A stretch of 52,593 nucleotides of DNA, filler included, from Jimgerdemannia flammicorona (Eukaryota): the NCBI GenBank assembly GCA_003990765.1. It is 2 parts of 2 records of this genome, joined end to end, with 100 filler letters (N's around TTAATTAATTAA, not from the genome) between each part and the next. Parts side by side here need not be neighbours in the genome. Positions count along the whole stretch, not along the records: positions 26,348 to 52,593 come from RBNJ01000747.1; 1 more part is not named here. One strand, 5' to 3'. Each line of letters opens with the position of its first letter. Positions within the stretch are counted from its first letter, which is position 1. A program made the translations under genes and the position numbers. Below, piece by piece: positions 3,647 through 51,327 of the stretch. The notes below the pieces were generated by a model. It had not been told where the DNA came from. It was given only the letters and a program-made list of their open reading frames with translations, and searched no databases.

Positions 3647-3764
3647 CAGTTGGTCATCATTGCTCATCTCATATACTGTATGATCTTCTTGTGCTCTGCT
3701 CTGGTGGCTTGCAAGGAAAGACTGTCTCCTGTGCTGATGTTATCATTCTGGGGTCACCATTACA

Positions 3765-9459: not shown

Positions 9460-9462
9460 AGT

Positions 9463-11915: not shown

Positions 11916-12045
11916 ATCACTCCCACTTGATAACTCTTATTGGAATTTGTCAAAATGTGCTCACAAATTTGTTGCTGAGCTACCAATAGCCTTATATGAT
12001 ACTTTACAGTAGTTACATTTGATTTGGATATCTCCATTTTCCTTA

Positions 12046-12532
12046 TGCTCCCTTCTCGAGACACCGCGCCGCGTCTATTACGACGTGACGCTCTGCGGGG
12101 GGGCTGGAAAGTTCGCATTTCCACTGCGTGTTCGTCCATGTCGACCGCGTCGACGAGCTCGAGCCGCACACGTACGGGATTATGTACAAGGATGAGAACA
12201 TCATGTCGTGGGAGGGGCTGTTCGACTCAGAAACATGCGAGATCAACAACGTCCCCATCCAAGCCACGCCGTCGTCCCAACAGCTACACTTTCTCTACAG
12301 CCCCACGCGCCCGGCGTCCTATCTCTTGCGCACCTACACGGGTTGCATACTGCGCACCGACATTCGCAAGGGAGGCCTGAGGACAGAGAGGAGCTTCGCT
12401 CACGTGTTCGTGTATGAGCAGGAAGACGGTTTCCTGTTTGTCGAGTTCTGCGATAAGAAAGGAGGAGAGGAAAGGTTGGTCGAGCCAAAGGAGTATTTAA
12501 TGTTTGCGATTCACGACGTGATGTGGCAGTAA
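12046..12532 (+). CDS. Unknown protein, probably 3' part of a 5'-truncated host gene
   Basis: CpG-rich, GC3-biased frame 12128-12532 ending TAA; no credible ATG; upstream passes abruptly into AT-rich degenerate DNA. Confidence 0.45.
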
Positions 12533-12930
12533 GGAGAAGGTCGGAGTTTTCGGAGGAGTCTCGAATGTTTGAACATATCCGCACATTTGTAATTAGTCCA
12601 TTGCATGCATACGTTTAGCTGTTATATTCACAAACATTTTGCCCATTCTAATTATATACACAAATATTTGTTTGTTGTGCATATAAAAAATTCCAAACAT
12701 ATTCGTCTATTAAAGAAAATGACGACAACTAAGGATAGATAAAATGCATATGCGCTATCACTAATAATTAATTTTTGACTTTGCGAGGTGGTTCCTGTAG
12801 TGAATTCGGTTGCAAAAGAGGGGGCGATTTTATTGATAATGTGTATAGCGCGACTGATTGGTGACGTCACCCTGATGACGTTGTACATATCGAGTTGTAA
12901 CCAACAGTTCCGAAGCACCCGTCATCCACT

Positions 12931-17222: not shown

Positions 17223-17807
17223 GGGCCTTGAACTGCTGTTTGGAGGTTTTTCGAGAGTTGGGGGACTGTCATCAAATAAACATGCGTCAGTTGTGGCTGA
17301 ACCGAACTGTACACAGAAATTTGTGGCTCGCGATTAAGTATATATTGTCACATAGTGGGCGCTGAGTCCTTCAAATACATCAGATTCTTTTCAAGGTGTA
17401 TATCTCTTAGACTAACTACAAGTTTGTTATAAGCAAGTTCTTATTGGAGTGCCTTCCCGAGGTCTTATAGTCCCCAAACTTCTTATCTTTAAACTGTCTT
17501 GTTATCTCTTTAGATTGCTTACATGGAATTGAATGTAAGTGAACTAAGGGAACTGACTTTATTTCAAAGAAAATGAGAGGAGTATTTATACAAAATATAA
17601 TTCAATGGTTGCTAAGATATAAAGCTAAATATAAATTCCAATAACAAAATAAATAAAATACTGGAACACAGAAAACTTCAGTTATAAGTACAAATTTGAG
17701 TGTCTATACAAATAGTTGCACAAGTTCAGGATGCTAGTAGATTTCAGTTGTACAAGAAAAGGATGCCAGAAGATTTAGATGTTCAGATAAACAGTTACAC
17801 AAAGAAC

Positions 17808-18658
17808 TCAGAGCAGAATGTTCAGGATCCTGGGGGCTTCATCTTCATCACTATTATTAAGGTTAGAGATCAGAGACAGGATGTCTTCAAAGGAGATAAG
17901 ATCAGTAAATGTTTCATCTGTTTCACATATGTTTTGCATTTTGCATACTTCACACATGTTGTCAATTAGCAAGATGACATCATCACATTCAGCAGTGGCA
18001 AGGAGAGCAAGGAGATCAGGGGCTCTCTAATTGATAACATTCTCTTCTACAAAATAAAAGACAAATATGGAGTCTTGGAGAGATCTAACCTAGATACTGG
18101 GACCTTGGAATACTGAGATCAATCCTTATAAGAATTGATCTGAATTGTCCTGGAGAATGAGATTCCAGAACTCTTCTATCTTATCACTATTGAGAGTAAT
18201 GGTGGATTGGGCTTCTATGGTCACTATGGCCTCTAGTATATCTGTACAGTAGGCTGACAATTCTTTGAAGTCTGAGACTCTGGTATACTCCAAGTTGGGG
18301 ATTGACTATAGTGCATATCTGAAGATCTGATAAATCTTCTTAGCTATCCTTATTTTATATATATCTATAGGGATAGCATCTTATATCTCTTGGAGACTGG
18401 TCTGAGGGAATTCCCAGAAGAGAAGATTTCTATTTTATACTCCTACTATATCCAGAGGTATTCAGTAGTGATAGTGATCCTTGTTTCCATTTTATAGTAG
18501 TAGAGGATAAAGTGATAAAGGTCACTAGTATCCAGATTGAGGCTAGAAGTCCTTCTGGTGTAGGTCCTTATAGCTCTTCTGATATCTTGGAATATCCTTT
18601 TTTAGACTGAGGGGCCTTGGTGGTTCCTGGATCTTGAGGTTTGGTGAGTGGTAAGTAT
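17808..18658 (-). pseudogene. LTR-encoded accessory protein, copy A2 3' LTR
   Basis: Homologous to 2710-3522; ATG>ATA, multiple stops; ends ILNILL*. Confidence 0.8.
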
Positions 18659-21600
18659 TTTGTTTATAGTGAGTCTTTGAGTTATTTTGGAGTTTTAAGA
18701 GTCTTGTTTGATTTGCTACTGCTATAGTTCCTTAGTCTTTCTTTTATATTTCTTGAGATATCTATCTTGTAGTCATAATGACTTATGGTTGGTCATCATT
18801 ACTCATCTTATAGCCTGGGTGAGTTATGCTATATAATCTTCTTGTGCTCTGATCTGATGGCTTATAAGAAAAGACTATCTCCTGTAATGATATCACTATT
18901 CTGAGATCACTATTACATCTTTCTTCTAAATAAGGATCTTCTCTTGAACATTCTCATTCATTGGTCTAGTCTGAAAATTTGCTAATTTCATAATCTCTGG
19001 CAGGAGGTCAAAAAGTGATATTTATGGGCTAGTATCTTCCTTATATATTTTAGTATAATGGTGAAGAGTCACTCTCTTCAGAGTAAGAGCCTAATTCTGA
19101 TCTTAACTAATCAGTTGATGGTTTGAACTTCTCTGGCTTTGAAAGTCTTATGGATGAGTAGTTGCTAGTACCATATCTCTTAGAGAATGGTCCAGACAGA
19201 TTGCCTGCTGGTCATAAGACATATTGTTACAATTTGTGGACTAGAACCTCATAGGTGATCATAATATTTTACATCTCTTATATGGGTTCATGGTACTTCT
19301 TGAGTGTGTTCCTATATACTATGGTAAGCAGTATGGTCTCTGAGAGTTTTCTAAACCAGAAGATAGTTCTCTTGATATCTTGCATATAGAAGGGTCCTTC
19401 CCATTTGGGCTCTAGTTTTCATAACCATAAGACTTCTACTATATTTTGATATAGTAGAACCTTTTCTCTAATTTGAATAGATTCTAGAGTCTTGTGATTC
19501 TTTTCTACATTCTTCCTTATTAGTACTTATGACTTGATGATATAATCTTCTGCCTTCTTCTTGATTTGATATAGTCTCTGGATTTCTGAGTCAATTTATC
19601 ACTAAGTTAGATCTAGATTTATAGCTGAGGTTCTATCAGAATCTTCTTCTCTGAAGATCAGTTCTCTTGGAAAAGTGTGTACTCTATAATTGTATATCTT
19701 ATAAGAAAGAGAGGGCAGTTGAGAGGTAGTTATCCCAATTCTTATATGTTTCTGATATCTTAGCCAGAATGTTCTCAAGGGTCTTGTTAGTTCTTTCTAT
19801 CTATCTATTATTTTATAGAATCTGTTGACAAATTCTGTACCACAGTCTATAGTAATTTGTCTTGATGTCTTATTGTAGCAGATGATTTCTTAATATAGGA
19901 AGTTAGTAATAGAGAGAGCATTGGCTTCTATAATACTCTTACTTATATCTATTTGGTAAAGAGGTCTACAATAACTATGATGTAGTAGTTTTCTGATAGA
20001 GTTACTGGTAGTGGTCTAATGATATCTATTATAATGTAATAGAAGAGAATAGATTTGATTCTTGATAATCTGGATGTCTGGTCTTGCTGATCTTGTTTCT
20101 GTTTTTGGCACTTATCATACTTTTTGACAAATTGGCACAGGTCTTCTTCCATCTTAGGCCATCACATAGTTCTTCTTATCTTGTCATATATATTGGTTCC
20201 TCCTAGATATCTTTGTTCATATACTTCCTTCATTACTTGATACTTCTTATTTTCAGATATTATGAGTTTTTCTCCTTTTCTGAGTATAGTGTTGTCTAGT
20301 TCAAATTGTTTCCAAGTCTAGTTAATAATAGTGATAGTCCAGGGTTTGGAGTAGTTGGGCATCTTCCACTACCTAAGATAGCTGATTAATCTATAGTATA
20401 ACTTCTTATTTATGTTGAATAGTCTTGATGGGAGTATTTCAGAGTATCCTTGAAAGTGCATCAGTATTGGTATTAGTTCTTCCTGAGCAGTATTTGATAG
20501 TACAGTTATACTCTTGTAGTCTGTAGATCTATCTAATATATATTTCTTTGGAGTTCAAAGTGTGGAATAGCTAGACAAGAGCAGAGTAGTCTGTTTGAAT
20601 AGTGAAGTATTTCTCAGCTAGATAGTAGTAGAACTTATCTACTGCCCAAACTACTGCTAAGTATTTGAGCTTGCATGACTTATAGTTCTGTTCTGCTCTG
20701 TAGATACTTCAGCTTATATAAAAGATAACATATTTATATCCATCTTTCTTCTGAGCTAGCACTACTCTAAGTTCTATAGTACTTATATCTGTCTGTAGGA
20801 TGGACTCTAGATTTCAATCTAGTCTTCTGAGGATAGGTGCTTGGGTTAACCTAGTCGTGAGTTTATTGAAGGTTTCTTGACATTTCTTAGTCCATTCAAA
20901 TTTGGTCTCCTTCTTCAGTAGCTTATAGATAGGTGCTATAATATTAGAGTATCTTTTAATAAATCTTCTATAGTAGGAGGCCAGTCCAAGAAAGATATAG
21001 ACTTTTGTGGTTGTTCTTGGTCTTGGATAGGCTACAACAGCCTCAATATTCATAGAGTCTATATGAATTCCAGTCTGGTTGATAATGTGTTCTAGGTAGG
21101 TGATTTCTTGAGCTATAAACTTATACTTCTTGGGCTTGATATAGAGGTCATACTCCTTGAGCTTCTTGAGGGCTAGCTGTATATAGTTGATATATTTCCA
21201 TGTAGTATTACTGAAGAAGATCATATCATCAATATAGACAAAGAGCTACTTTCTAATATTATTACTAAAGACTCTGTTCATCATTTACTAAAAACTTACT
21301 AGAGTATTACATATTCTAAATAGTATTTGCAGGTAGACATAGGTGGTATCAGATGTGATAAAGGTTGATTTCTCACTGGCATCTTGAGTGAGACCAATCT
21401 GATAGAAGTCTGAGAATAGATCTAAGGTAGTATAGTATTTAGCTTCATAAGGATTTCTTGAATATTTGACAAGAGCTGCCTATTCTTCTTGGTAATTGTA
21501 TTGAGCTTTCTATAATTAATACAGGGTCTTGGGGAAAACTCTCTAGACTTACTTTCTTTCTTTAGAGTAAGGACAATGAGTGAAGCCCAGGGGCTGATAG

Positions 21601-24600
21601 CTTGCTTGATGATACTGACTTCTTTTATTTTCTTAAGTTTTGCTTGTAGCCATTCTCTGTAGGCAGGTGGTATAGGTCTGGCTTTCTGATAGATAGGCTT
21701 GGTATCATCAGTATCAACTTTATAGTAGTACTTGAGTTCTTGATTGTAGATGTCTCTAAAGTCTGTAGTAAGTACTCTTTCATTTTGGTACAGGATCTTG
21801 AGAAGTTGTTCTTCTATGGGAAAGTTTTCTCTAATAGTATATGTATACTTGCTTGAGTTCTTATCTGTCTTGTGCTTGAGTTCAGTAATCTTGGTTGCAG
21901 CATAGACTCCTCTTATAGTAGATCCAAAGCCTTGTTCTCCTCACTTAGTCTTGATGAGATTGATGGCTTCAGTGATCTTAGGCTTCTTGACTTCATGGAT
22001 CAGTATCTGGCCAATTCTGTCATACTTCTTAACTTCAAATGGGGTGGTAGAGTTGTGATTTCTAATTATAAGAAAGATCTCACCAGTGTAATCAGTGTCA
22101 ATAACTCCTTCTTTAACTGAGATTTTGCTCTTAGTCAGATTGCTCCTGGTCTTGATAATTCCAGCATAGTTCTCTGATAACTTGACTCCAGTTCCAGTAC
22201 CAAGTAGAGTGGTGGTCTGTGGTCTGAGGAAAGCATCTTAGATGTTGGTAAGGTCTATTCCTATGGCTCCTTCAGTCTTGTATTCTGGGATCTTAGTTTC
22301 AGGGTAAAACTTCTTGACCTTGAGAGTGATGTCTGATTCTTGTTTCTCCTCATTATTGCTATCAGCTTGAAGCTCTGGAGACTGGTCATCTTCTTCAGCT
22401 TTCTTTTTTGCTTCAGTAGCTTCTTGCTTATACATATCTTTGTTAATGGATTTTTCTAACTTTACTGATATAGGACTAGTAGTCATTTAGGTGTTTGAAG
22501 CAGTATATCCTAGTACTATGGGGGTATCTTTCTTGAGGAGTATAGCTATTAATGATCTTGTTATACCACTGCTCATCTGTAAGCTTTGTTATCTTACTCT
22601 TGTTCTTACATACTGAGTATATGAAGACTTTTGTATTTTCTTCATCTTCTTCCTCTATGTCTAGTAGTACTTCTTTATGGATATTAATAGATACTCATAC
22701 CTTTCTTTCTCTATAATTAATTTGTATTTTCTAGGTATTGAGATCAATAATAGCCTTGGCCTTATAAAGTCTTTGGTTACTAATGAAGATATCATAGTTG
22801 GTAGCACTTGTAACAATCATATCTACTGAGATAGTAGCTCCTCCAATCTTGATAGAGACTTCTCAGATCTTATCTAAGAGAGTAGCTCATATATTATCTG
22901 CTATAACATAGACTATTTTGATAGATTCTTCAATATCTCAGCCTAGGCAGTCAATTGCCTTTTTGCTCATAAGATATCCTTAAGCACTGGTATCAATGAT
23001 AGCATCAAAGATATAATCTTCAATCTGATATTAAGTATAGGCTGAGGTCTTATACTGATCTTCAGATTCTTTGCCTGAGTCTTCTTGTTTATCTTCCTGT
23101 ACATTGTAAGCTTTTATGATCTTGTACTCTTGGTTCTTGACAGTAGTTGCAAGTCCTACTCTCAACTACTGTCTGAAGGCAGAGACTTCTGCTAGTTGTC
23201 TAAAAATGGTATTGATCTTCTATTCCTTGAGATCCTTATAGATATCATACTAGTAAATCTTAATCTTACATAGCTTCTGTTCTTTCTTGCTTTCACTTTC
23301 TTCTAAAACTAGAGTAGTATCTTCAATAATTTGGCAGGCAGCTTTATCTAACTCTATTCTTGATCAATCTTCTCAGATTGGATCTTACTTTGAATAGTGA
23401 TGGTTGAGATCTTTTTTTGTCTTCCAACTGACTTGCTGTTGTCTTTCTTATCATAGGGCTTGGATCAGATTCTAGTAGCTTCAGTAACAGGGTAGAATTC
23501 AGACTCTTTATAGTATTCTTTATTATCAGTATTATCAATCTCCTTGATGACTACTATATTGATTTGTTTTCTAGTTCTGGTGGCATCACTTGATTGAGCT
23601 CTGAACCTTATTTCAGTTATATAATTCTTTGTATAGTGGTCTTCTTAGTATATGATGGTACATTTCTCTATAGTAGCTATAAACTTCTGCACTGGTCTCC
23701 TGTTGATACTTAGTACTTCTCTAACAATATTACCAAGATATACAGTCATCTTGACAAACTGCTGGGCAAGTTTCTCTACTAGGTCAGCTTTGGTCATTTT
23801 GGGGATAGGTGGGGATAGGTGGGGATAGTTGTCTGTTGATAGCTGTAGTAGATATGATACTGGTTAGTTTTGGTGGCCCTATCTTGATGTCAGTTATTCT
23901 TTCTATTGAGTGTTCAGCAGAGTGTCTGATAGTCAAATATCTCTATACAAAAACTACTTTCTGATCAAGGGTCAGAGCAACTAAAGTAGATCAGATTGCT
24001 AGAGTAATTTCATGGTAGACTCCTTTTAAGAAGGTTGAATCAGCTATTTGTTCCTTGAGGACATTATCATAGTTAGCTAAGACAATCTGGTAGCAGATTT
24101 AGGTATAGAATAAGTTGAGATCTTTGCTGAGTTCCTGGTAGATAGTATTGAGTTAATCTTTGAGAGCTTGCTTGATCATGTAGTTCTGAGAAAGTTCTTT
24201 ATATTGACAAGTTTGACTGTATCAGCATTAGTAATAGTGGCTATATTGAACTTGTCTCTGGTAGGTCCTCTGAGGCTAACTGGTAGAAGGGCCAATTGTG
24301 CATTTATGGTAAGAACTTATATGGCATCAAATTGTTCAAAGTCTTCAATGAAGGTCAGGATTGACTCTTTAGTAGTAAATCCATAGAATGTGGAGGGATA
24401 TATTTCTATCTTATCTTGAATTCTTACAGGGGGTAACTCTTATAGTCAGGATAGTTATTATGGTGGTTATTTGTTTTTTCAGCTTGAAAGTGAGAAATTC
24501 ATCTTGAATTACTAGTCAATGGGTACTAAGTTATCATATAGTGGGCACTGAGTTCTTCAAATATGTCAGATCCTCTTCAAGGTATATCTCTTAGACTAAC

Positions 24601-24991
24601 TACAAGTTTGTTATAAGTAAGTTCTTATTAGAGTATCTTCTCAAGGTCTTATAGTCCTCAAACTTCTTATCTTTAAACTATCTTATTATCTCTTTAGATT
24701 GCTTATGTAGAATTAAGTATAAGTAAACTGAGGAAACTGACTTTATTTTAAAGAAAATGAGAGGGGTATTTATATAAAATATAATTCAATAGTTGCTAAG
24801 ATATAAAGCTAAATATAAATTTCAATAACCAAATAAATAAGATATTAGAACATAGAAAACTTTGGTTGTAAGTATAAATTTAAGTATCTGTACAAATGAT
24901 TGCATAAGTTTAGAATACTGGTAGATTTCAGTTGTATAAGAAAAGGATACCAAAAGATTTAGATGTTCAGATAAACAGTTATATAAAGAAC

Positions 24992-25843
24992 TCAGAGCAG
25001 AATGTTCAGGACTCTAGAAGCTTCATCTTTATCACTGTCATTAAGGTTAGAGGTTTGGGACAGAATGTTTTCAAAGGAGATGAGATCAGCAAACATTTCA
25101 TCTATTTTGCATATATCATGCATTTTGCATGCTTTGCATATGTCATCAATTAATGGGATAACATTATTACATTCAGCAGTAGCAGAGAGAGTAAGGAGAT
25201 CAGAGGCTCTCCAATCTATGACATTCTCTTCTACAAAATAAGAGATAAATGTGAGGTCTTGGGAAGGTCTAACCTGGATGCTGGGACCTTGGAATACTAA
25301 GATCAATTCTTATAGAAATTGATCTAGATTGTTCTGAAGAATGAGATTCTAGAACTCTTCTATCTCATCACTATTAAGAGTAATGGTGGATTAGGCTTCT
25401 GTGGCCACCATGGTCTCTAGTATATCTGTATAGCAGGCTGACAATTCTTTGAAGTCTAAGACTCTGGTATACTTTAAGTTGGAAATTGATCATAGTACAT
25501 ATCTAAAGATCTGATAAATCTTCTTAGTTATCTTTATTTTATATACATCTATAGGAGTGGTATCTTGTATCTCTTGGAGACTGGCCTGAGGAAATTCCCA
25601 GTAAAAGAGATTTTCTATTTCATACTCCTGCTATATCCAGAGGTATTTGGTAGTAATAGTGATCCTTGTTTCCATTTTATAATAGTAGAGGATAAAGTAA
25701 TAAGAGTCACTAGTACCCAGGTTGAAACTAGGAGTCCTTCTGGTATAGGTTCTCATGGCTCTTCTGATGTCTTGGAACATTCTTTCTTGGACTGAGGGGC
25801 CTTGGTAGTTCTTGGACCTTGAGGTTTGATGAATAGTAGATAT
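24992..25843 (-). pseudogene. LTR-encoded accessory protein, copy A2 5' LTR
   Basis: ORF-track piece 24992-25306 (VFQGPSIQVRP...VLNILL) matches the A1 protein. Confidence 0.8.
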
Positions 25844-26015
25844 TTTATTTATAGTAAGTCTTTGAGCTATTTTGAGATTTTGTAAGTCTTGTTTGAGTTG
25901 CTGCTACTATGGTTCCTTAGTTCTTCTTTTATATTCCTTGAGATGTCTATCTTGTAGTTGCAATGACTCATGGTTAGTCATCATTGCTCATCTTGTAGCC
26001 TGGGTGAGTCATGCT

Positions 26016-26094: not shown

Positions 26095-26148
<54 letters not shown>

Positions 26149-26247
26149 TTTTACAGACTCTATGTCCTGTAGATTTTTATTGGAAGGAAACCTAGACTAT
26201 ATAGGCCAAATCCCTCTCCCACCACCCATCAAGCTCTGCTTTCTCAT
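26017..26247 (-). mobile_element. 3' end of a non-LTR element (AATAAA + long poly(A) tail) abutting the A2 LTR
   Basis: Reverse complement matches ~30415-30530 (GGCCTATATAGTCTAGGTT...CCAATAAAAATC). Confidence 0.75.
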
Positions 26248-26347
26248 NNNNNNNNNNNNNNNNNNNNNNNNNNNNNNNNNNNNNNNNNNNNTTAATTAAT
26301 TAANNNNNNNNNNNNNNNNNNNNNNNNNNNNNNNNNNNNNNNNNNNN
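26248..26347. other. Assembly gap with synthetic TTAATTAATTAA linker
   Basis: N-run / TTAATTAATTAA / N-run; stop codons in all six frames. Confidence 0.95.
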
Positions 26348-27877
26348 CTGCAGGTCGGGTATCCCATGTGAGGGGTTTTTCAGGAAGGGTTCGCCACCAT
26401 TCTTCAGCAGGTCCTCGGAAGAATGTAACAACTCGGCAGACATAGGCTGTAGTGGTAGCAAAGAGTTGTTCCAGAGTGTGGTCTTGATTGTTTGTCAGAA
26501 CACGGTCAGCAACTCGTTCATTAGTCCATTGATTGGCTTCAAAGTTGGTGTCAACTACACTAATGAAGCTTTGGACTTCTTGTGCAGTACCATTGAAGGT
26601 AGGTAGGCTCAGATTTTTGGTAGGTCGGGTCTGTTCGGCTAAGGCAGTAATGGTTGCTGCCATTATAGCTACTTGGGCTGTGAGATCTAGAATCTGTTGG
26701 TTCGCCATGTTGATTGCTGGAGGCGGTTGGACTGCTGGTAGTGGTATTACCGGTACTACTTGAGGTACTGGTGCAGAGTGTGATGGGGTTCTTTGGGTCT
26801 GTGTAAGTTGCTGGAGTAGTAGTTGTGGATCTGGAGTGAGCACTTGATAGATAGCTGTTTGTTGCTGTGTAGGTGTATTCTGTCCGGATGGATGTGTGTC
26901 TCCTTCGGTAGTGTATCCGGGATCGAATTCAGTGAGATACTCCTCCTCTTCTTCGGTTTGGTCCCCGTGTAATTGGGTTTGCTCGGCGTCAAAGTAGACA
27001 GAATCAGTTGTATATCTGATTTCAGACGGACTTAATTCAAAGTCAAGTTCAGGTTCGGTATTGGTTTCAGGTTCGAGTAGAGCTGTAGCAGGGCCTGCTT
27101 CAGATTCGGGGTCAGGTAGTTGATGAAGGGTTTCTCTTGCTTCTTCCTTAAGAATATGGCGGGCCTTGCTGTTCTGGAATCGGTAGTATAATGCGGTCTT
27201 GGTCCTGGTACGGTGATAGTCGGTAGAGTTGAGCCACTTGGCTATAGAGGCTTGGGCTTCGTGAGGAACTAAGGCTAGAAAGACTGCTGCTGGTTGTCCT
27301 AGGTTGCTCGGATTTATGGAGCTGACAAAACTCTTGTTGAGAAGAGTAAAGAAGGCTTCAATAAGACCTTCTTCGTCTTGACTTGCTGGGTGTAGTGCAA
27401 GGAGTTCGGTAAATAGGGTTTCGCCTATTTGCTGGTTTAATCGGAGTACTTCTTTCTTTGAATGAAGTTTATCCCACTTGTTGCAGGTGTGGAGGTCAAA
27501 TTGTCCTTGTACGTCAGGTTCAATTCTCTCCAGATTGTCAGATGGTTCAGGATAAATTCCAGTTCAGAGGTTGGGCTTTATACCAACTTATAGGAATTCT
27601 CAAAGGGGTTTGTAGCGGGGTGAGGAAGCGTCTTGAAGCGGAATTGGATTGTAAACCGCTGCTACCAAGTTGTAAGAGGGTTACTTTTTAGGGTGACCAT
27701 TACGTAGTTCTAGAAGGGTTTTCTGGAAGTTCTGGATATTCTGGAAGACCGTTTTCTTATGGTCAAGATCAATTTCATATGGAGTACGTCCTCTACACTT
27801 ATTGATTTCAAGATCGGGTTGACGTCTCAACCAAAGTCCTTTTTTCGGACTAGTTCTGGATGTTCAGGATTTTCCAT
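26348..27877 (-). pseudogene. Gag of family B with long N-terminal extension
   Basis: LPTFNGT...FRGPAEEWW...TWD capsid-like motif; frame stop-free from ~27560 to the gap and traceable upstream through a few stops. Confidence 0.75.
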
Positions 27878-28348
27878 ATTTCAGGAAGTTCAAGAAACTA
27901 AGACCAGCTTAGTTTAATTGGCGTATCGCTGCAGACAATACCCAATTAGGAAATTTCGTGACGGAATTAGGAGTAGGACCTAACAGAGAGCGGATTTACT
28001 TAAGAGTGGTTTGTGGGTTATGGAATAGGTTTATTCGCTATTCATGATATTGCTATACTAGGAGTATTTGTGTAAAGGGATATTGTGGGGGAAGTATTCA
28101 GGAATGTTCTTGTGTGTTCGAGTCTGAGATTCTGAGGTCTGGGGGAGGGGGTATTTATACTAGTGAGGGGCTATCTGGACTATGCTAAATATGGATGTAG
28201 CACTAAGTGCCTTGCTGAGTTGGAATGCAGTCACGTAGTACAAGTGTGATCTGACATGTCAAGAGATCGTCTGACTGCTGAGTCAGTTCACAGTCACGTC
28301 GTACAAGGCTAATCTATCTATACTATGACTGCTGGACTATTTATAGAT

Positions 28349-29446
28349 TTAGGCACTATCTGGGTAGTCTTCGATGACATCACCATCGATTGCATCATCT
28401 CTGATGAAGTAGTCATCTAGGAAGAGTGGTTCGCGGATTACTTCTCCTTGTTGGCTGAGGTAGTAATATATTGGGACTTCATCTCCATCCCACAGGATAG
28501 CATCGTCTGTTTCATATGCTGGATAAGGTGTTGGTGGGTGAAGGATGGGTGTACTGTCTTCGCTTTTATCGGATTCGCTATCTGCATACCTTCTATAGGT
28601 TACAGCACTATGAGTCGCGGGGTTGTAGTAAGCTGGCGGCTGTGATTCAAGTTGCTCGTACTCGGGTGGTGGAGTGGTTGGTTCAATCTCGAGAGTTGTC
28701 TGAAGGTACAGGTTGTGTTCTCCAGTCTCTTCATTGTAGTTGAAGTAATCGGGGGTGAACGCAGGTTGGTATTCGTGCCAGTGGTCATTGTCCCAATAAG
28801 TCTCATATGCTGTTATGAACTGTTATAAGTTCATCGGCAAGGTTGGCGGAGTGATCAGGGTTGGTAGAGATCCTTGGCTAGAGGTCATGTTGGCATCAGA
28901 GGGGTCATTGTCTTCTGCTTCATCTTTATCGAAGTAGATTATATCATAGACATCCTTCATGGTGTATCCGACTTGAGGCATTTGCAGGATATGGTCATCG
29001 GGGTGCGGAAAGGTTCTGTCTGTGGTTTCGACATACTCGAGGTATTTGTGGTTGATTTCTTATATCATGTCGTCTATTTGGCCGTAGGACAGGGTAGCAA
29101 CCATTTCGCTGGTAGTAACTTGGAGGCGGGAAATAAAGGTGTTGTACTCGTAGAAGAGTTCTTGATGTTTGTGGGCGATGAGCTTCTGGTGTTGAGACAT
29201 CTGGGTCATGTCTGTATTGTGGTGGTGTTCGACCATGTCTTCCAAGAGGTGGCCGATCTGGTAGTAGCTTGAGATTTGTCCGATTCGGTGGGCCTCGCTA
29301 AGCATGTTCAGGGCGTTCCATCGGGCTTCCACGAAGTAGAGGGGTGCCAGGCTATGGATATTCATGAGGGGCAGAGGGGGTGTGGCTCGGTTGACAATGG
29401 CATTCCAAATATCAGCACGGATGCGGTTGTAGATCTCAGTGGTCAT
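28349..29446 (-). pseudogene. LTR-encoded accessory protein of family B, 365 codons, two in-frame TAA
   Basis: The 128-aa ORF continues in frame past TAA at 29060-62 and 28823-25 to ...LFLDDYFIRDDAIDGDVIEDYPDSA*; TATATATA at 29517-29524 and A/C-rich leader. Confidence 0.8.
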
Positions 29447-29700
29447 GTTTGTGTGTTTGGAAGTTGTGGTTTGTTGTTTGTTTTGGTTCTTTGATTCAAC
29501 GTGTCTCGGTGCTCAGTATATATACATTTGGTCCTGATTGGTAAGGTTCTGTTTGTGTAGATCTTGTGTTCCGTGACTTCGTATTGACTCAGCTTTGTGT
29601 ACTGTGACTTCGGTTTGACTCAGCTTCGTGATCAAGCAGGTGATTTCCAGATTGGTTTAGAGGTCGCGTGTGATTTCAGTGGCTTGTTCAGAGGGTGACA

Positions 29701-30499
29701 TGTAATTTCGGTGGCTTGGAGGTTGTGCGCTTACAGTTCTGGTATAGGTGACTGCTTTTCAGGTGTTGTTGGGATGGAAGGGGAGATGGCCATCACAGAT
29801 AGGAGAAAGGGCGATAATGGTGGACCAGTAGGGTGCCAGGCTGGGGATGGCTATTGGGGCTGGGGCAGGTGCTGCTTCGGTAGGGCCTTTTGATTGATGT
29901 GGTGCAGTTAGATGGTAGGTGTCACTCTCAGCTTCTTTTGGCAGTCAGGCAGATTAGGCCCCAGTTGTTAGGGGGAGTTGGGGGGCCTGAGGCTATCCAT
30001 TTCAGATATCTTGGCTACACTCAACTGGAACCAGGAGCTGATATGGCAACATAATCGAGGCCCACAGGCTTGAGTAGTGGGATATTGGGGGTCTCCTCTC
30101 ATCTCACATGTAAGTTCTTTACTTACCTCGACTGGGAGAACCAGGCCCTACTCATCATGTTGTGCTTTGATGAGAGTTTTTCTTCTACCTGTCATTCTCT
30201 TTAGGGTGGCAAGGGCTATTCTATTCGGCTTGGGCATGGTCTTGTACATATGTTGGGTTCTCAGGCATATGCTTTCAGTCATTGACATATGGCTGGGTTT
30301 CCCCTGGTAGTAGGGAGAGCATAGTGTACAGATTGAGATACAGGCCTCCTTTGGCCCTACTGCACCTGGTATGGTTGAGCTGCTGGATAATAGCTAGCCT
30401 AAGTTAATAGGGGGACAGTGCTTGGTGGGTGGTAGGGGAGGGTTTTGGCCTATATAGTCTAGGTTCTCTTCCAATAAAAATCCATGGGATATTGAGTTC

Positions 30500-30530
<31 letters not shown>
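29701..30530 (+). mobile_element. 3' fragment of a non-LTR (LINE-like) element with AATAAA and poly(A)
   Basis: G-rich strand, W..R motif (LYICWVLRH) like L1-type ORF2 C-termini, AATAAA ~30473, poly(A) 30503-30530. Confidence 0.6.
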
Positions 30531-31969
30531 TGATTCATTTAGTTTTGATGGCATCACTCTCAATGATGGTAAATATCCACTACCATCTCTACCACTTACT
30601 GATTCCAAAAGAAAAAAGGTTCTTATAAAAAGAACCCCATCAAGATTACTAAGGAGGTAGAATGTGCAGCAAAGTTACAGCAAAAGTGAGAAGAGAAGGA
30701 GAAAGAAAAGGAGATAAGAAGAGCTGATAAAAAAGCCAAGATAAGTATCACAATTACAATTAGCATCACAATCTCAACAACCCCTACCCTCAAGAGTATA
30801 CTACAATCTTATGAAGAACCAGATACTTCTAATTCAGATAAGGAGGAGGAGGAGGAGGAGAAGAGTGAAGATGCATTATCATCATAGTTTATAACAATTA
30901 CTAACTCTAAGTATTCCTATATCAATACATCTGTAACCAACCTATGATCTAGTAACTACTTGTACAATCTTATTGATTATATTTATAAATACTTTAATAA
31001 ATATCAAAATGGAAAAGACAAACTCTAATCTCAAGAAATATACCACCTATATAACAAAAGGTATACTGTATACTTAAGATCTATTATATAATATAAACAT
31101 ATAATGAAGTATCTGAAAATGAATGAATGAGCTGAGAATAGTATGATATTATATACAATATATTCTGTAAACTTTGAAACCTCTTTTCTGTTATGCTTGT
31201 CAATTCTACTAGTAATACTATTATTTGTAAAAAGAAATTAGTATTAGTATATATAAAAAGAACAAATAACTAAGTAGAAATAGCAACAGCCTTCTAAGAG
31301 ATAGTATCAATCTTTCAAAACTTATAGTTAGTAAAGAAGTATCAGCTGGTAGAGAAGAGAAAACTCAGAAATTATTGGCTTAATATTGAGAGATAAGAAT
31401 AAAAGATTAGAGAAGATAGAGAGTGAGAAATAAAGAAGAGAGAGTAGAAGACAAAGGAAAAAAATATTTAAGACAAAACAGAAAAAGAAAATATAAGTAT
31501 ATAAACTTAAAAAATATAAATATCAGATATTGTAAAAAAGAAATATAAGGTGAGATTAGGTAAGTAGAAGCAATTAAGTAGTAGTAATAATAAAGATGAG
31601 AGCAATGACAATACTATCACTACTACTTCTAACAGTAGTAGTGAGGAGATAGATAAAGAAAGAGAATAAAAATAAAAATAAAGAGAATTTATATATAAAT
31701 AATATATATAATAAAATATTATAATTTATACTAATTTAATATAAGTTATAATTATAACTTATCTATAATCTAACTAATACATATAATTTAATAAATATTT
31801 GAAGTTAAGTCTCTGCTAGACTTGAGAGATATTAGAAAAAAAAAAAAAAAACAGATATTATTAAGAATAACTAAATTGATAAGAGCTCATCTTTCTCCAG
31901 TACCATTCAGATTACACAACCTTTGGAAGGCACTTACAACATCATTTTTGGAGAAAAGAGACTAACAAC

Positions 31970-33992
31970 ATGGTGACTGACAGGTAACCTGAGGGATATA
32001 CTGGGCAGGGTGGCCCAAGTACTTTTAAATAGCAGCAGGTGGGGAGGGGCCCAGGCCTGGGGGGGGACATAAGGGGACTACTGGCAGGAGGATGTAGAAG
32101 GGGGGGAGATAATAGTAGAGGCCAAGAGTCTAGGAGGGCAAGCTTTGTGGAGACAGTGAAGGGGAGGCAGTAGGTGTCAGAGCTGGAGGGCTGACTGAGG
32201 AAGGGCAAGGAGAACAAGAAGGCAGTGGTGTATGAGAGAGTAGCCCTTGGAAGGAGGGGCAGTGAAGCTGGGGGAGTAGCAGCTGGAGGGAGTGTAACCT
32301 GCTGATGAAAAGGAGACTGCCAATCTGGAAAAAAATTCAGATATGACAGCTGATGGTGAGACTGAGCAGCTGAGGCTTAGGAGACAAGGGGATTTGGCAG
32401 ATGGCATGATGGGCCTGGCAGTGGTCCTATTACTCAAAAAATCAATCTCGGTATTTACAGTTACACTGTGCTTCTAGAGCTTAGTGGTGATGGCGAAGAT
32501 GGTGCTGGGGCTTATTGCTAAGCAGGTGGTGGGAGCTGTATCAGTGAAGTTTTTGAAGGAACTAGAGGGTGTAGAGATGGGTTTTGAAGAGGCTGAGCTG
32601 GAGGAGGCACTGAAGGTAGAATTGGTAGTGGGGGAGGTGTGTGTTCTGATGGCATGGTTCTTGAAATGGAATCTGAGAGTGGTCCAACTGCTGGTGAAAG
32701 GAGTGCCCACGGTGACAGTAGGGGAGACGAGAAAGAGAGTTGAGGAAGTCATAGCTGAATATGGAGAGGTAGTGGATATTGGATTCAGGGTCTGGGAAGG
32801 GACCTCACTCAGAACTGGTGATGTAGATGTGAGGATTCGGCTGGCTGGGAGAGAAGCTACTGAGAAGGCGAGGGACTGGCCTTCAGTGATAGTCTGGGGA
32901 GCAATCTTGTGCAAGGTGATGAGGGTGAAGGGAAGTGAGAAGGAGGAAGAGGATTTACTAGAAGCACTCGAGAAATTGAGTGGTACTGTAGAATGGTGAG
33001 TCAAGGCTTGGAAGGCCTTTGTGGAGTCAATGCACTTGGAGGTGGTGGACAGAAAGTGGATTTGGGTAGACAAGGTGCAGTGAGAGAGAGCTCAGGAGTA
33101 TAAGAGACAGAAGGATCTGCTGGTTAAACTGGGAGGCAGACCACTGGAGGATGCAAGCAAGATGATGGGCATAGAGGGGGCCAAAGTAAGTGCCTGGGCT
33201 GGCAAGAGGAGTGGGAATGCCAGGAAGGAGACAGGGAAGGAGAAGGAGGCTAAGGTTAATGATCTGTATGCTGATGGCACCTTTGAGGTTTGGGAGGAGG
33301 TCTGGGAGGACTCCCCCACCCCTTCTCCTCTTATTAGGCAAGGCCCAGCTTCCAGAAACAAGATAGTGGAGGATGTGATAATGCTGGGGGCTCAACAGGT
33401 GAAATTCGGAGTTCTAGAGGTGATGAATGGGGGACATGTGGTGGCGGTTGGAGAGGAGGAACTGGTGGATATTCCAGAGGTGTGGGATGAGGCTATGAGT
33501 ACTGGAGCTAACACTATGATGATGGATGGAGGGAGGCTGGCAACCCCTAGAGAGAAGGAGGTGGGGAACCTACTCTAGATGTATAGGATGATGAATAATC
33601 TGACAGCAGAAAAGTTGGGAGAGGTGGACTTGCAAATGATGGATGATGAACACTGGGCACAGATACTATAGGGAGATGGAGTGATGATGGCACTAAAGGC
33701 AGAAATTCTTGTAGTGTATCTGGAGAAGGAAGGGTATGAAGTGGACAAGGAGTGGGAGGCTGAGATGGCAGTTGTTGCTGGAGAGAGGGCTGAATACTGC
33801 TGGAACAAGTGTCATAGATTGCAGCTTTGGCAGGAGGCTTGTATTGAGTACCAGGAGGAGTTTGAGGAGAAGGCTGATGGGGAGATGAATGAGCTGTTGG
33901 CTAGATTAGAGGCTCAGAGGGCTGAAGAAGAGGAGGTGATGGCAGAACATAATCTGGACATGGTATAGGAGGAGATGAATATGGAGCAATAG
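31970..33992 (+). pseudogene. LINE ORF1 (RRM-like core, acidic C-terminus)
   Basis: LLVKGVP...IAEYGEVVDIG...TGDVDVRI RRM-like pattern; multiple stops. Confidence 0.75.
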
Positions 33993-34019
33993 AGATCATC
34001 TGATAACAAAATATATTTC

Positions 34020-37000
34020 ATGATGAACAGTACAACCAACATTTTTTCTTTGAACATGAATGGGTTACAGGGTGCTGTTAGATATAGAAATATTTTTACT
34101 TAGCTGAAGGGATTGGAGGCCGATCTCTTCCTCTTACAGGATGTCAGGTGTGAGAATAATTCTGATAGGATGGAATGGACAAAGGAATGGGGTGGCATGG
34201 TGATTTGGAAAGGCAAGGTTGGGATTCTAGTTCGGAAGAGCAAAGGGGAGTTAAGAGATGTGAGGAGCTGGGGGGAGAGGCTAGTCTGGGGTGAGTGGAT
34301 TCATGCAGACTGAGAGCCAGTTATAGTTGGCTCCTGTTACTGCCCTGCTATATGGGGTAAGCATGTAGATTGGGTAAAGGGTCTCCAGGAGAGTGGGATC
34401 CTTGCAGAGGCTGGGGTGGATATGCTTGGGGGAGATTTCAATATAGTTTGGGATATACTGATGGATTGAACAGATGGAGGATGGGGTGCTGAGAGCAGGA
34501 GCAGGAGACTGGTAATGTGGGAGGAAGTAGAAAGGCTTAGTGTACTGGTGGATACTGGTAGGGAGTACTGAGAAGATAGGAGGGTTTATACACATTGGGC
34601 TGTAGGCCTGGGGACTAGGATCGACTAGATCCTGACAGCCAGCTGCTGGGGCCAAGATGTTTGGAAGTCACTGGAGGTAGAGTGGTGCCCATGGTCAGAT
34701 CACTGGGGCCTTTTGGGACAGGGATGCTTTGGGGGAAGTGGGGATGGGCCTGGACATTGGTACCTCAATTTCTCTTTATTAGATAACAAGTCTCAGTGGA
34801 ATGAGTGGACTAAAGACATTTAGCTGAGAGTGGAGATCTGATGATGGAAGGGTATCTCAATTGGGGTTTGGTGGATGAGGATGAAAGAGATGGCCAGGAT
34901 TTACTAAAGTGGGGCTGGTAAGGAGGCAGGGAAGCAGAGAAGGCAAAGAGTGCAGTGGGCTTCTACTAGATTAACTAGGCTTCTGGAGGAGTGGGTGAGA
35001 CTGGTGATATTGGAGAGAGAGGAAGATTGGAGAGTAATGAGGGTAAAGATGGAGGTTAGGGAACTACAACAGGTGCTGTGGGAAGAGGAAGAGGCAAGAG
35101 TACAAGGCTTGACAGCAAAGCTTCATTGGCAGATGCTGGAGGATAGAGAGAGGCCTTCCTGGTTTCTCATGAGGGCTCTTAGAGCAAAAAGGGTACAGCA
35201 ATGGTGGGAAGGGGTACTTGACTCAGATGGTGTACTCATGCATGGGGTGCAGGACATTCTTGAATCATTGAAGGAGTGGTGGAGCAGTTTGTGGAGTGAG
35301 GAGGAGGGTGGGGTAGATGCTGCTACCAATGGTTGAATATTGGAGGATTGGCACCCACTATAAGTAGAGGGGCTAGATGACCTGGTGATGCCTATAAGAG
35401 AGGATGAGATCCACCAGGTTCTTACCATGATGACCCTAGGTATGGCACCTGGGGAGGATGGTCTGCTCTGGGACTTCTGGAAGCAAATGGTTGGAGTCCC
35501 AGGTGTGATAGAGGAGATGATGGCATTGTGCAACTCTATATTACAGACAGGGAGATGGGTGGGGGAGCAGGATCTGGGGCTGGTGATGCTGCTTTATAAA
35601 AACAAAGAAAGGTGAGAGGATTGGAAGAACTGGCAGCCGATAATATTACTAGATATGGACAAAATGCTGGTGACTAAGGTGGTGGTTGCAAGGCTATAGA
35701 AGGTGGCCTAGCAAGTCATGGGTATTGAGCAGAGGGGATTTGTGGGTGGTTGGCTCATTAGAGATGATACAGCCTGGGTATATAGAGTTATTGAAGAGAC
35801 AAGAGCCTGTGGACTGAATGGACATCTAGTCTTCTTGGACCAGAAGAAGGCTTATGACTGGGTGCAACGAGTCTGGCTGGTGAAGATATTGGATAGAATG
35901 AGGGTTCTGCACCAATTTCGGTCAGCAATAGTCAGCCTACTGGAAGGGAGTAGGGCTGCCATCATGTGTAATAGACATAGAGGGGTGGCATTTCTCCTGG
36001 GTAGGGGGGTGCCCCAGGGAGACCCACTGTCCCCCATTCTGTATGCCCTTTCCCTGGAACCCCTAATGGACAGAATTAGGCAGAGGATAGCAGGGCTCTC
36101 TATCTATAAAATTGAGTGGAAAGTTGGAGCCTTTGCAGATGTTATGGTGATTGGTTTGAGATCGATTGCTGATGTCAAGGAGCTCAAGAAGACAGTAGAG
36201 TGATATGAGGAGAACTCTGGGGCTAAGTTGAATTGGCACAAGTGTGAAACAATAGTGCTAGGCAATAGCCTGGTGGGAGGAGAAGTTATAGGAACAATCA
36301 TCCCCACTGATGAGGCAGTGTGGTACTTGGACATCTATTTGTCAGTCTATGGGTCAGTTCTGCCCAGGCCTTGGTGGGAGCAGAGAATTGGAATCTGGGA
36401 GAAGGACCTGTGGAGTTGGGGGGGAAGACACTTTTCTCTGGCAGGGTGGGTCTCGATTTTGAATGTATATTGGCTGCCAAAGCTGTAGTATTTAGCTTAT
36501 CATCTGGACTTCCTAGTCTGGGTAGTGAAGTGATTGGTAAAGGTGGCAAAGAGATGGATTTGGACTGGCAGATGGAGTCAGATTGGTTGGGAGACCTTGT
36601 CTCTACCAGTGGCAAGAGGGGGTCTTAGGCTAGTGGATTTTCCCAAATGACTACACTGCTTGAGGGCATGGTGGCTGAAGAGGGCAGTGGAGTTGTGAGG
36701 AGGTGGTTGGATTCCCCTGCTATAGAAGATCTGGGAGAGGTGGACATCGCCAAGAGGTTCAACTGATGATCTCCTCTCATTGGTTGGACTTTGGAACTCT
36801 AAACTATTGTGATACAAAGGATTCTGGTAAGGGATAGTGGAGGGAGTGTACTGTATTGGTATTTGCTAGCAGGGGAATGAGGGGGAGGTGGCTTGGGACC
36901 CAGCAATGTAGAGATGGAATAGTATTCTGCTGGGTGGTGTTCCTCTAATTGATTTTGACATTGGTGATGGAATGGAATACTAAAGGGGACCAGGCCAGGA

Positions 37001-37715
37001 TTTATGGCCTAGCAGTTGGCAAGGAGTTGGAATTGGAGAAGAGTGGAACTAGCATAGTGTTTGGACCTAGAGTGCCACAATGTATCAGTAGATATCGCTG
37101 AAGTATTGGGTGGTCTGGTGGCATATACTGAGGAGGAATGTAATGCTCAACTTTTGCTCAGGGCACCTTATCATAGGGGGTTGCTTTGACTGTGAGGAGT
37201 GCCTGAATGTAGGGCAGGAAGGGGAATTTGTACAGATGCCAGAACATTGGCTAGGAGAGTATGAGGTGTTGAGAGACTTTTGGAGGACTATTGGGGACTA
37301 CTTGGGGATGAGGTATAGGGGAGGTGAAGTACAGAGGAGGTGGGAGGACTTGAGGGATCAATTGGTAGGGGGGGTAGGAAAAGAATGGCTTATCTTGGGC
37401 TGGGCATTGGCCATTTGGGTGGGGCTGACCAGTCACTGGCTATTTGTTTTTGAGGAAGAGAGGAGACAAGACTTGGAGAGCTGGTTATTGTAGTAGCAGA
37501 GTCTTATAGAAGATACCTTGATATGCTGGTGGCTTAGTTGGAGGCTGCAGAGTGGGCAGAGGTACCACTTGGTGGAGAAAATCTGTGGACAGAGTGGCAG
37601 GAGAGTTGGAGTCATTGGTGAGAGGGTGATCTTTATTCAGGAAGAGGTGGAGGGGCTCCTCTATGGGGATTGGGTAGTGGGTGGCATTAATGTATACTTA
37701 TTTATAGATTGGTAA
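34020..37715 (+). pseudogene. LINE ORF2 (APE endonuclease + RT)
   Basis: FSLNMNGL, DLFLLQD, GGDFN, SDH; RT APGEDG, LDQKKAYD, GVPQGDPLSP, AFAD; C-terminal CxxC...EHW. Confidence 0.93.
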
Positions 37716-37920
37716 TAAAGATGAAGTCTGAGTGACTATAAAGAAAAAAAAAAAAAAAAAAAAAATAACTAAATTGAATTATTACTATAATATTATAATA
37801 TAGTAAATATATACTAGTAGAAGTATAGCAGATTTCTTTATATTGAATACTTAATTTTCTTTAACTTCTCAGAGTTCTTAGATTTAAGAGTAAATGAGTT
37901 CAATATATATATATATATAT

Positions 37921-40900
37921 TTTTATAGTCACTTGGACTTTGCTATTTATTATTAGTCTATTGATATAATTATAGTATTTCCTCCCACTACCCAATTCCC
38001 ATAGAGGAGCCTCTCCCCATGTCTTTACATATGAAGACCACTTTACCACTCACTACCCCAACCCTCCCCCCACTCTGTCCACATATTTTCTCTACCAAGC
38101 GATGCCTCTGGCCACTCTGCAAACTCCAATCAAGTCACTATCCTGTCATAATGTCCTCTATTAGCTCTTGCCATCTCAACAGCTATACCCCCAAACCCAT
38201 ACTTCTCTCTTTCTTGAAAACAAACAACCAGTGACCTGCCAGCCCTACCCAAACTGCCAATATCCAATCTAATATAAGCCACTCCTTACTCACCCCTCCC
38301 ACCAATCTATTTCTCAAATCCTCTCACCAACTCCATACACTATCCCCCCTATGTACAATACCCAGTTGATCCCCAACTACTAATCAAAAGTCACTAAGTA
38401 TCTCATACTCTCCTAACCAATGTTCTGGTATCTATAAAAATTCTCCTTCCTATCCTATATTGTAGTACTCCTCACAGTTGAATCTACCTCCCTCAACAAG
38501 ATGACCCAAGTAGAAGTTGAGCAAAATATTCCTCTGCAGTATGCACCACCAAACCACTCAATACTTTGGCAATATCTACTATCTTATCTCAGCACTCCAG
38601 GTCCAAACTCTGTTCTAGTCCCACTCCTCTCCAATACTCACCAGCTATTATCTACTGGGCCATAGATCCTGTCCCAGCCCCTCTGGCACTTGATCCCATC
38701 ATTAATATCAAAATCAACAAGAGAAATGCCTCTCAACAGCACTCTGTTCCATCTCTACATCACTGGGTTCTAGTGCTCCTCCCCTTCATTTTTTACCAGC
38801 AAATTCCAATATAATGTACCCCATCTACTACTCCCTACCAGAAGTCTTTATACTGCATGTATCTATTGTTCCAAAGCCTAATGAAGGCCAGTAAATCTCC
38901 TATAGAGCCTCTTGGTGAGAACCTTATCTCCCAGACCTTCTGTATCAGGAGAACCTAGCTACTTTCTTCCAACTTCACCACTATCTTCAGCCACTATGCT
39001 CTCAGGCAGTACAGCCTCTTCAGAAAGTCAACCAGCCTAAGGCCCTCTCTAGCCACCAGTAAGAACAGAACCTCCCAGCTAATCTAACTCCTTCTCTTAG
39101 CCCAGATCCTGCTCTTGGCCAGTTTCATCAGTCTCTTTATCACTCAGGCTAAGAAGTCTAGGTGATAGACCAAATACCACAGCTTTGGCAGCCAATAGAT
39201 ATTCAAAATCGAAACATGCTCTGCCAGAGACAAGTGATGTCCTCTCCAACTCTGCAGGGCCTCTCCCCAGATTACAACCCTCTGCTCCCACCAGAGTCTT
39301 GGTAGGACTGACTCATATACTAACAGATAGATGCCCAAGTACTACACCACCTTCTCTATAGAGACAATTGTTCCAATAATATCCCCTCCTACTAGACCAT
39401 TGCTTAATACTATCATTTCACACTTGTGCCAATTGAGCTTAGCCCCAGAGTATACCTCATACTACTCCACTGTCTCCTTGAGTTTCTCAACATTAGCAAT
39501 CGATCTCAGGTCAACTACTATGTTATCTGCAAAGGCTTCAACTTTCCATCCAATTCCAAAAACAGATAGCCTGACTATCCTCTGCCTAATCCTATCCATC
39601 AAAGGCTCTAATAAAAGGGCATACAGAATGGGGGACAGTGGATCCCCCTAGGGCATGCCTCTATTTAGAAGAAATACTACCCCTCTATGTCTATTGTATA
39701 TAAGTACAGCCCTACTCCCTTCCAGTAGGCTGACTATTGCTGACTGAAACTGGTGTAGTATACCAATCTTATCCAATACCTTTACCAACCAGATCTGCCA
39801 AACCCAGTCATATATCTTCTCCTGATCCAGGAAGACCAGGTGCCCATTCAGTTCACAGACTCATGCTCCTTTAATAACTCTATATACCCAAGCTGTACTA
39901 TCTCTAATGAGCTGGCCTCCTACAAAGCCCCACTGCTCCACCCCCAAGACTTACTGGGCCACCTTCTGCAGCCTTACTACTACTACCTTAGTAACCAACT
40001 TTCTGTCTATGTCCAGTAGCATGATCAGCTGTCAGTTTTTCCAGTCCTTCCTCCTTCTCTTGTTCTTATAAAGCAGTATCACCAACCCCAGATCCTGCTC
40101 CCCCACCCATCTTCCTGACTATAGTATTAAGTCACACAGTGCCCTCAGCTCTTCTAATACTCCAGAGACTCCTACCATCTTCTTCCAGAAGTCCCAGGGC
40201 AGCCCATCCTCCCCTGGTACCATGCTCAGTATAGTTACAGTAAGAACCTGGCAGATCTCCTCTTCCTGTACTGGTATCACTAGCCCCCCCAGCCCTTCTG
40301 CTTGTAGTAGGTACCAATCCTCTAAAGTAAGATCAATGGTAGTGGCATCTACCCCATCCTCCTCCTCACTCCATAATCCATTCTATCTCTCTTTTAATAA
40401 TCTGAGAATATCTTGTATACTATACACTAGCAGACTATTAGAGTTCAGTATCTCCTCCCACCTCTGCTTTACTCTTCTTGCCCAAAGGGCTCTTGTGAGA
40501 AACTTAGAAGGCCTTTCCCCTTCCTCTATCTTCTGCCAACATAACTATGCTGCCAAACTCTGCACCTGTACCTCCTCTGCTTCCCACAACATCTGTTATA
40601 GTTCCCCCACCTCTATTCTCATCTGTATTAAATACCAGTCCTCCTCTCCCTCTTATGCCACCAAACTTACCCAATCTTCCAGAAGCCTAGCTAGTCTAGC
40701 AGAAGCCATCTTACCCTTCTCCTTCTCTTTCTTCCAGCCACCTTGCCAGTCTCACTCTAGCAGCCTCCTTTATCCTCATCTACTGGACACTAATTGGGGT
40801 ACCTTCCTGTATTCAGCCCTCCACTATCTGCTAAATATCCTCAGCCCACTTATCCCACAGTATCTTGTTATCTAATAAGGAGGAATTGAGGTACCAATGT

Positions 40901-50876: not shown

Positions 50877-51327
50877 CTATATAGAGTCTAATATATTTTA
50901 AACATAGACTTTATTTAGGATATTCAGTCTAATTTGCTACAGTTATATTGGAGGCTTCTAAGAGAACTAAGTCTTCTACTTTAAAGAGAACTTCTCTTTT
51001 ATATTAATTGACATATTTGACTTATTGCTTCTGAGTCTTCTATAATTCTTTTTATACTAATTATATAATATTTTCAATAGTTACTGCATTATCTTCTGCT
51101 GCAAGTACTATAGATTTTTCTATAGTTGCCAGAGTTCATAGGTATTGACCAGTATTTATAAAAAATATATTATTTGAGTAAATGACTGTTTGGAATTATT
51201 ATAGACAAATTCTGATAATGAGAAGTATTGGTCTCAGTTATCTTATTTGTATCTAGAGAATAGTCTTAATATTTATTTAAGGGTTCTATTAGTTCTTTTT
51301 ATCTAATTATTAGTTTGTAGATGATAT

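Follow-up and report, generated by a model that had tools for sequence, protein, structure and literature searches.

A repeated three-block unit at two promoter positions of a gypsy-type LTR in Jimgerdemannia flammicorona: a candidate target of an element-encoded protein acting with a host bZIP factor

The usual view is that LTR retrotransposons rely on the transcription factors of their host; the U3-borne gene sag of MMTV encodes a superantigen. HTLV-1 Tax, as described in the accessible text of PMC12564054, stabilises CREB and makes contact with the DNA flanking the CRE within the 21-bp repeats. Foamy-virus Tas acts on both viral promoters and forms a positive loop (PMC7390438, accessible part). 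In yeast, Gcn4 is named among the regulators of Ty1 in the available part of PMC10968565, and its control of Ty1 and Ty2 appears in titles cited in PMC3384299 (available part). The high-affinity site of yeast Gcn4 is RTGACTCAY, and YTGACTCAR is unbound (PMC8805717, accessible part). For the additional ORFs of LTR retrotransposons, the accessible part of PMC7264820 gives the function as unknown and names no binding sites; in that of PMC10787394, U3 variation is described without a gene. Our search of the literature, mostly open-access and confined to main texts (including the accessible parts of PMC10787394 and PMC3185809), found no case of a transactivator encoded in the LTR of a fungal or gypsy element.

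The window analysed here is the whole 52,593-nucleotide stretch of J. flammicorona DNA, and the element of interest in it is a member of a family that we call B. Family B has TG...CA LTR ends, a primer-binding site and a polypurine tract, and it is a chromovirus-type gypsy family because its copies carry dUTPase, protease, integrase, SH3 and chromo domains: Pfam matches to dUTPase, protease, rve, SH3 and Chromo were obtained in four of six frames from several copies. The reverse transcriptase fragment, without an RT match at E 0.01, was identified by eye; the order gag, protease, RT and integrase, with a chromodomain at the C-terminus, agrees with this class. The features of the LTR and its surroundings are as follows.

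27671-29735, minus strand: 5' LTR of the family-B gypsy element, 2,065 bp, with TGTAAG...CTTACA ends.
29595-29624, plus strand: unit U2, an exact TTGT-N5-GTGACT-N6-TGACTCAGC (bipartite part 29604-29624).
29564-29593, plus strand: unit U1, exact (bipartite part 29573-29593).
29517-29524, minus strand: TATA-like box before the LTR gene, TATATATA in this copy, a putative promoter element.
28349-29446, minus strand: accessory gene between the two pairs of units, 365 codons, with two in-frame stops in this copy.
28277-28306, minus strand: unit D1, exact, inverted relative to U1 and U2 (bipartite part 28277-28297).
28214-28243, minus strand: unit D2, with an imperfect last block (bipartite part 28214-28234, with two mismatches).
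28152-28159, minus strand: predicted TATA box of the genomic-RNA promoter, TATAAATA, 54 nt past D2.
28030-28035, minus strand: candidate poly(A) signal AATAAA.
27659-27667, minus strand: primer-binding site TGGTAGCAG, 3 nt past the LTR.
26348-27563, minus strand: start of the gag frame, cut by the assembly gap; in other copies it runs on into dUTPase and protease.

The LTR ends are corroborated by the matches in other copies, which stop at the same points, and the primer-binding site TGGTAGCAG is presumably a match to the 3' end of tRNA-Met. Along the element strand, the U units are followed after about 40 nt by the TATA-like box, the 365-codon gene, the inverted D units, a further 54 nt, TATAAATA and R-U5. 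A preliminary description had assigned the motif pairs to two LTR promoters. The unit is indeed present at both promoter positions, but both lie within this one LTR, and the upstream box is non-canonical in most of the family: it reads TATATATA, the canonical form, in 10 of 63 copies and CATATATA in 52 of 63. Summed contig depth climbs between bin 28128-28221 and bin 28034-28127, from 12 to 2,423 in one and from 23 to 517 in the other of two runs that we guess to be RNA, with no such rise at the genomic TATA in a third run and none at the upstream promoter in any; this step is a weak hint of promoter activity just downstream of the genomic TATA, as depth summed over assembled contigs cannot show transcription start, strand or level.

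Positions 26248-26347 are an assembly gap with a linker joining two contigs, and the family-B element is cut there in gag. Short poly(A)-tailed pieces at 26125-26238 and 30416-30530, 86% alike and inverted, flank the family-B fragment; 31888-43754 holds two decayed copies of another retroelement, inverted and about 72% alike; and host gene fragments with cytochrome P450-like motifs, recognised by eye, lie on the minus strand at 12000-15000.

The bipartite motif GTGACT-N6-TGACTCAGC, from which the preliminary description started, occurs four times in the window as had been reported, three times exactly and once (28214-28234) with two mismatches, where chance predicts 0.08 copies and none of 100 shuffles reached four. 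The reported constancy of spacer length also held against longer spacers: the genome has 5,854 exact N6 matches, a search with N7 or N8 gave none, and the reversed control gave none. The motif itself, while real, had been described incompletely. A third fixed block, TTGT, stands 5 nt ahead of GTGACT in 4 of 4 window copies and 4,849 of the 5,854 genomic matches, so that the real unit is TTGT-N5-GTGACT-N6-TGACTCAGC, 30 bp with three fixed blocks. The abundance of the motif reflects copy number rather than independent recurrence, since the matches listed (the first 100 of 5,854) all have family-B-type spacers.

Within the window, U1 and U2 repeat with a period of 31 bp, and D1 and D2 are 63 bp apart; the upstream array of other copies has one to three units. 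A unit built from just U1 and U2 recovers D1 and D2 in inverted orientation, with 20 and 18 of 26 letters, scores that neither 3,000 shuffles of the downstream promoter nor 300 of the remaining LTR attained even once. Upstream and downstream units resemble each other in the core alone, with 19-22 of 30 positions inside it and 6-19 of 60 in the flanks. In the 69 downstream copies, the last block of D2 starts with CG in 49, TG in 14, CA in 4 and TA in 2; as D2 thus mostly has CG where the heptamer TGACTCA has TG, an exact AP-1 heptamer occurs three times rather than four in most copies. In the window the corresponding positions are 28221-28222. A methylated C could mimic T in AP-1 sites, which may be relevant to the CG of D2.

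How, then, does this LTR compare with the described systems? Like the HTLV-1 21-bp repeats, family B has repeated U3 units of 20-30 bp with a bZIP core and conserved flanking DNA, and, as with Tax, an accessory protein of the element is the proposed co-reader. Unlike in HTLV-1, the core is AP-1-like rather than a CRE, the flanks are two spaced blocks rather than GC runs, the units stand at two promoters with the gene inside the LTR, and the host is not that of an animal retrovirus; general Pfam and PDB searches found no sequence link of the accessory protein to Tax. As in foamy viruses (accessible parts of PMC7390438 and PMC7828637), there would be two promoters serving an accessory gene and the genomic RNA, with a positive loop proposed here. 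Unlike in foamy viruses, the second promoter would lie in U3 and not in env, and both predicted promoters share one sequence, whereas the targets of Tas are described in the accessible text as little related. The conserved extra gene in most family copies recalls the additional ORFs of PMC7264820 (accessible part), and that of the related family E lies between pol and the 3' LTR; unlike those ORFs, the extra genes of families A, B, C and D lie inside the LTR. Family B would bear a working likeness to the HTLV-1 repeats and the Tas promoters, but belongs to neither group. What is added here is the three-block unit, its conservation, the contrast in heptamer flanks and a controlled test of the kinship of the accessory proteins.

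The preliminary description had proposed conservation across family-B copies as a check, and the unit indeed changes less than the neighbouring promoter DNA. Copies were found by protein or whole-LTR likeness and not by the motif, giving 63 upstream and 69 downstream regions, with L021-L040, L047-L067 and the window's own copy left out. Copies differ from one another mainly by C-to-T and G-to-A decay. Plain identity per column is uninformative because CpG decay dominates it, and decay-type changes say nothing of function, so we counted transversions and shared non-deamination changes. Transversions occupy 7 of the 5,016 cells in the motif, 16 of 2,904 in the spacers and 171 of 20,463 in the rest of the promoters. 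Columns with a shared non-deamination change number 1 of 76 in the motif versus 32 of 356 elsewhere (Fisher p=0.011); with transversions only, p=0.019 at a threshold of three copies and 0.056 at two. An earlier version of the test that included motif-picked loci (p=0.004) was set aside in favour of the motif-independent set.

These counts are moderate evidence for selection on the unit in active lineages, the copies being related. Conservation was measured within related family-B copies only, since metagenome scans gave no distant lineage: the scan with a protein alignment yielded 21 pattern matches, none confirmed, and a scan with the 30-bp pattern gave one match, on a bacterial insertion-sequence contig without likeness to the element, which we attribute to chance. 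The unit is very probably a functional protein-binding site of some kind.

The gene enclosed by the two pairs is open in many other family-B copies and is under purifying selection: across 104 copies, shared-transversion columns number 15, 7 and 41 of 366 at codon positions 1, 2 and 3. Residues 141-365 of its product are acidic and rich in proline and aromatic residues (50 D/E versus 7 K/R), a composition typical of activation regions. Residues 1-140 are not basic (17 D/E, 11 K/R) and are predicted, with low confidence, to be helical (domain model pLDDT 56); the model of the full-length protein (pLDDT 33) is unusable. The domain model had no match at E 0.001 in two Foldseek libraries (best Z 5.3), a low-confidence comparison that neither names nor excludes a fold. 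By sequence, the family-B protein has no Pfam match, to transposase and recombinase families or otherwise, and no solved relative in the PDB. With neither these nor a usable fold match, the case for a DNA-binding role is made by layout and composition only. Protein searches at near lengths returned close, unnamed relatives only (1; 4, of which 2 were spurious repeat proteins; 4; and 12); one outside relative is 65% identical, and atlas searches gave no usable match, with all scores below 0.9.

Kinship is nevertheless detectable among the retrotransposons themselves, as the N-terminal domain is common to five families, A, B, C, D and E. Scored with a profile of the A, C, D and E proteins only, the family-B protein reaches 24.5-28.2 bits over 126 colinear residues, against a maximum of 10.2 bits in the shuffle control (2,947 reported of 3,000 shuffles). 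The profile-profile comparison of B with A and C alone is weak (3.8%, E 0.011), and the A and C proteins are 29% identical to each other. Weak profile matches in L105, L108 and L124 (E 0.2-2) perhaps mark two further families with the accessory domain.

The accessory gene lies inside the LTR in A, B, C and D and just before it in E. The window itself carries five family-A LTRs, each with a related accessory gene:

2215-3764: family-A LTR.
9462-11005: family-A LTR.
17345-18917: family-A LTR.
24531-26015: family-A LTR.
49217-50883: family-A LTR.

These LTRs have a palindromic array before the genomic TATA and an optimal AP-1 heptamer 37 nt ahead of the TATAAAAG of the gene. Families A, C, D and E lack the family-B unit in their LTR regions, with at least 6 mismatches of 19 in 49 of 50 anchored loci; the lone exception is taken to be a family-B LTR in L074. 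The sister families have their own arrangements instead: three to five palindromic units before the genomic TATA in A, three to four units of another kind in C (the two arrays share, by eye, the core CCAGCAYTG), family-specific repeats beside an optimal heptamer before the TATA in E, and TTAGTCA once or twice before the TATA in D (11 of 11 promoters printed, from 14 loci). No private array was seen at the accessory-gene promoter of A, C or E, and the use of the same site at both promoters is therefore particular to B. Two family-E subfamilies keep ATGACTCAT before the TATA and differ in the neighbouring repeats, and the family-E member of the accessory family is short and tail-less, directly after integrase (L094:8396-8857 and L101).

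Family B also has a non-autonomous subfamily, with 485 matches and LTRs often about 4.9 kb apart. Its members (G000:C5:10661-17018, which comprises L032, L048 and L033, and L190-L201) contain gag, dUTPase and protease, and no RT or integrase was seen in them. In their LTRs the place of the gene is taken by about 700 bp similar to the 3' internal region of C and D, and the upstream pair is missing too, while the downstream unit is kept in 10 of 12 loci. Retention of the unit in a gene-less subfamily fits a trans-acting factor, host or element in origin; it fits a host factor equally well, because the downstream region is undiverged (0 of 206 columns differ).

Our best reading of these observations, held tentatively and by analogy with HTLV Tax and foamy-virus Tas, is a composite site read jointly by the element's own protein and a host bZIP factor. 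The 30-bp unit would be a composite protein-binding site through which both LTR promoters are activated from upstream, its bZIP-type core weakened by the flanking bases and accompanied by two further blocks, spaced by about one helix turn and private to family B. The LTR-encoded protein, with its helical N-terminal domain and acidic tail, would bind the private blocks and recruit or stabilise a host dimer of the Gcn4/AP-1 type on a site that the dimer holds poorly alone. Low basal output of the upstream promoter would then supply the LTR protein, which would boost its own gene before the genomic RNA, closing a positive loop. The preliminary description had inferred co-regulation of both promoters by one factor or complex and a stress-triggered feed-forward or autoregulatory loop. 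In favour of this proposal are a conserved unit of fixed geometry at both positions, Gcn4-type bZIP genes in the host, and a selected LTR gene whose product has an acidic tail; plain reading by the host's Gcn4/CpcA fares poorly, with heptamer flanks of the class that yeast Gcn4 leaves unbound. The autoregulatory half of that proposal appears to fit better than the host-stress half.

A composite enhancer read by host proteins only—a bZIP dimer that prefers different flanks, or a bZIP together with a partner protein, the LTR protein doing something else—is the less likely account. The sequence YTTGT resembles an HMG-box core. The host has ten bZIP loci, three of them with a Gcn4-type basic region (NTDAARRSR), where yeast has one such gene; the best solved relatives of these three (L144, L146 and L147) are GCN4, at E 3e-8. 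In 3 of the 9 promoters examined an AP-1 heptamer stands no more than about 70 nt from a TATA (a post hoc count, with a rough chance p of 5e-5), family D has its TTAGTCA in the same setting, and the gene-less subfamily keeps the downstream unit. Against this account, no host target was seen among the matches listed (the first 100 of 5,854), all with family-B-type spacers; the sister families, too, lack the unit and have arrays of their own.

Direct binding of the TGACTCA heptamers by Gcn4/CpcA, switching on both promoters under amino-acid starvation, is improbable. The heptamers that suggested it are real, exact in U1, U2 and D1, the host has the genes, and Gcn4 is among the Ty1 regulators (PMC10968565, available part); to this extent a TGACTCA heptamer in a fungal-type LTR element whose host has Gcn4-type bZIPs is like the yeast case. 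Unlike yeast Gcn4 sites, family B has flanks of the unbound class and two extra fixed blocks, and A and E fit better. All 189 intact heptamers of family B (65 loci) have a pyrimidine before and a purine after, not the purine before and pyrimidine after of RTGACTCAY, whereas the heptamers before the TATA have the purine-pyrimidine flanks in 9 of 9 cases in family A (12 loci) and 10 of 10 in family E (14 loci); because the copies are related, these counts amount to roughly three sites versus two rather than hundreds of events, and the rule is that of yeast Gcn4, which may not hold for the host's three paralogues. Families A and E thus look like ordinary Gcn4 targets, and family B does not, which makes Gcn4/CpcA alone an unlikely reader of the latter. 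The D2 heptamer, moreover, is missing in 55 of 69 copies, and two other fixed blocks with fixed spacing would be left unexplained.

More doubtful still is a function outside transcription, with the pairs as captured DNA transposon ends (two direct repeats per inverted end), recombination sites, or RNA or DNA pairing signals bracketing the gene. The pairs are inverted and enclose the gene, and the gene-less subfamily has lost the upstream pair with it. Yet the inverted likeness ends at the 30-bp core and does not extend into long terminal inverted repeats, spacers that differ between the pairs would break any pairing, the protein matches no transposase or recombinase, its relatives occupy the same place without such pairs, and a TATA-like box follows each pair after 40-54 nt. 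Least probable of all is that an old duplication and inversion left a neutral relic, which a high-copy family has since carried with it: the pairs do change by tandem duplication (one to three upstream units) and most variation between copies is C-to-T decay, but the fixed blocks have been kept while spacers and flanks diverged, with fewer shared changes than in neighbouring DNA.

Joint reading by the element's protein and a host bZIP may, more speculatively, be one instance of a circuit like those of complex retroviruses, evolved separately in this clade of fungal-type gypsy elements, in which each family would encode, within or next to its LTR, a regulator of the same undescribed protein family that reads a family-private repeated site, the bZIP core of B being deliberately weak so that the element fires only with its own protein and the host factor together. 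The pairing of a conserved extra gene with a precise candidate target makes it directly testable whether such elements have a sequence-specific transactivator of their own, and the related families, with five proteins and at least four site types, are natural controls of specificity. If the reading is true, accessory protein and site would co-evolve family by family, and this would help to explain how several families reached thousands of copies each in a genome with heavy C-to-T decay among its copies.
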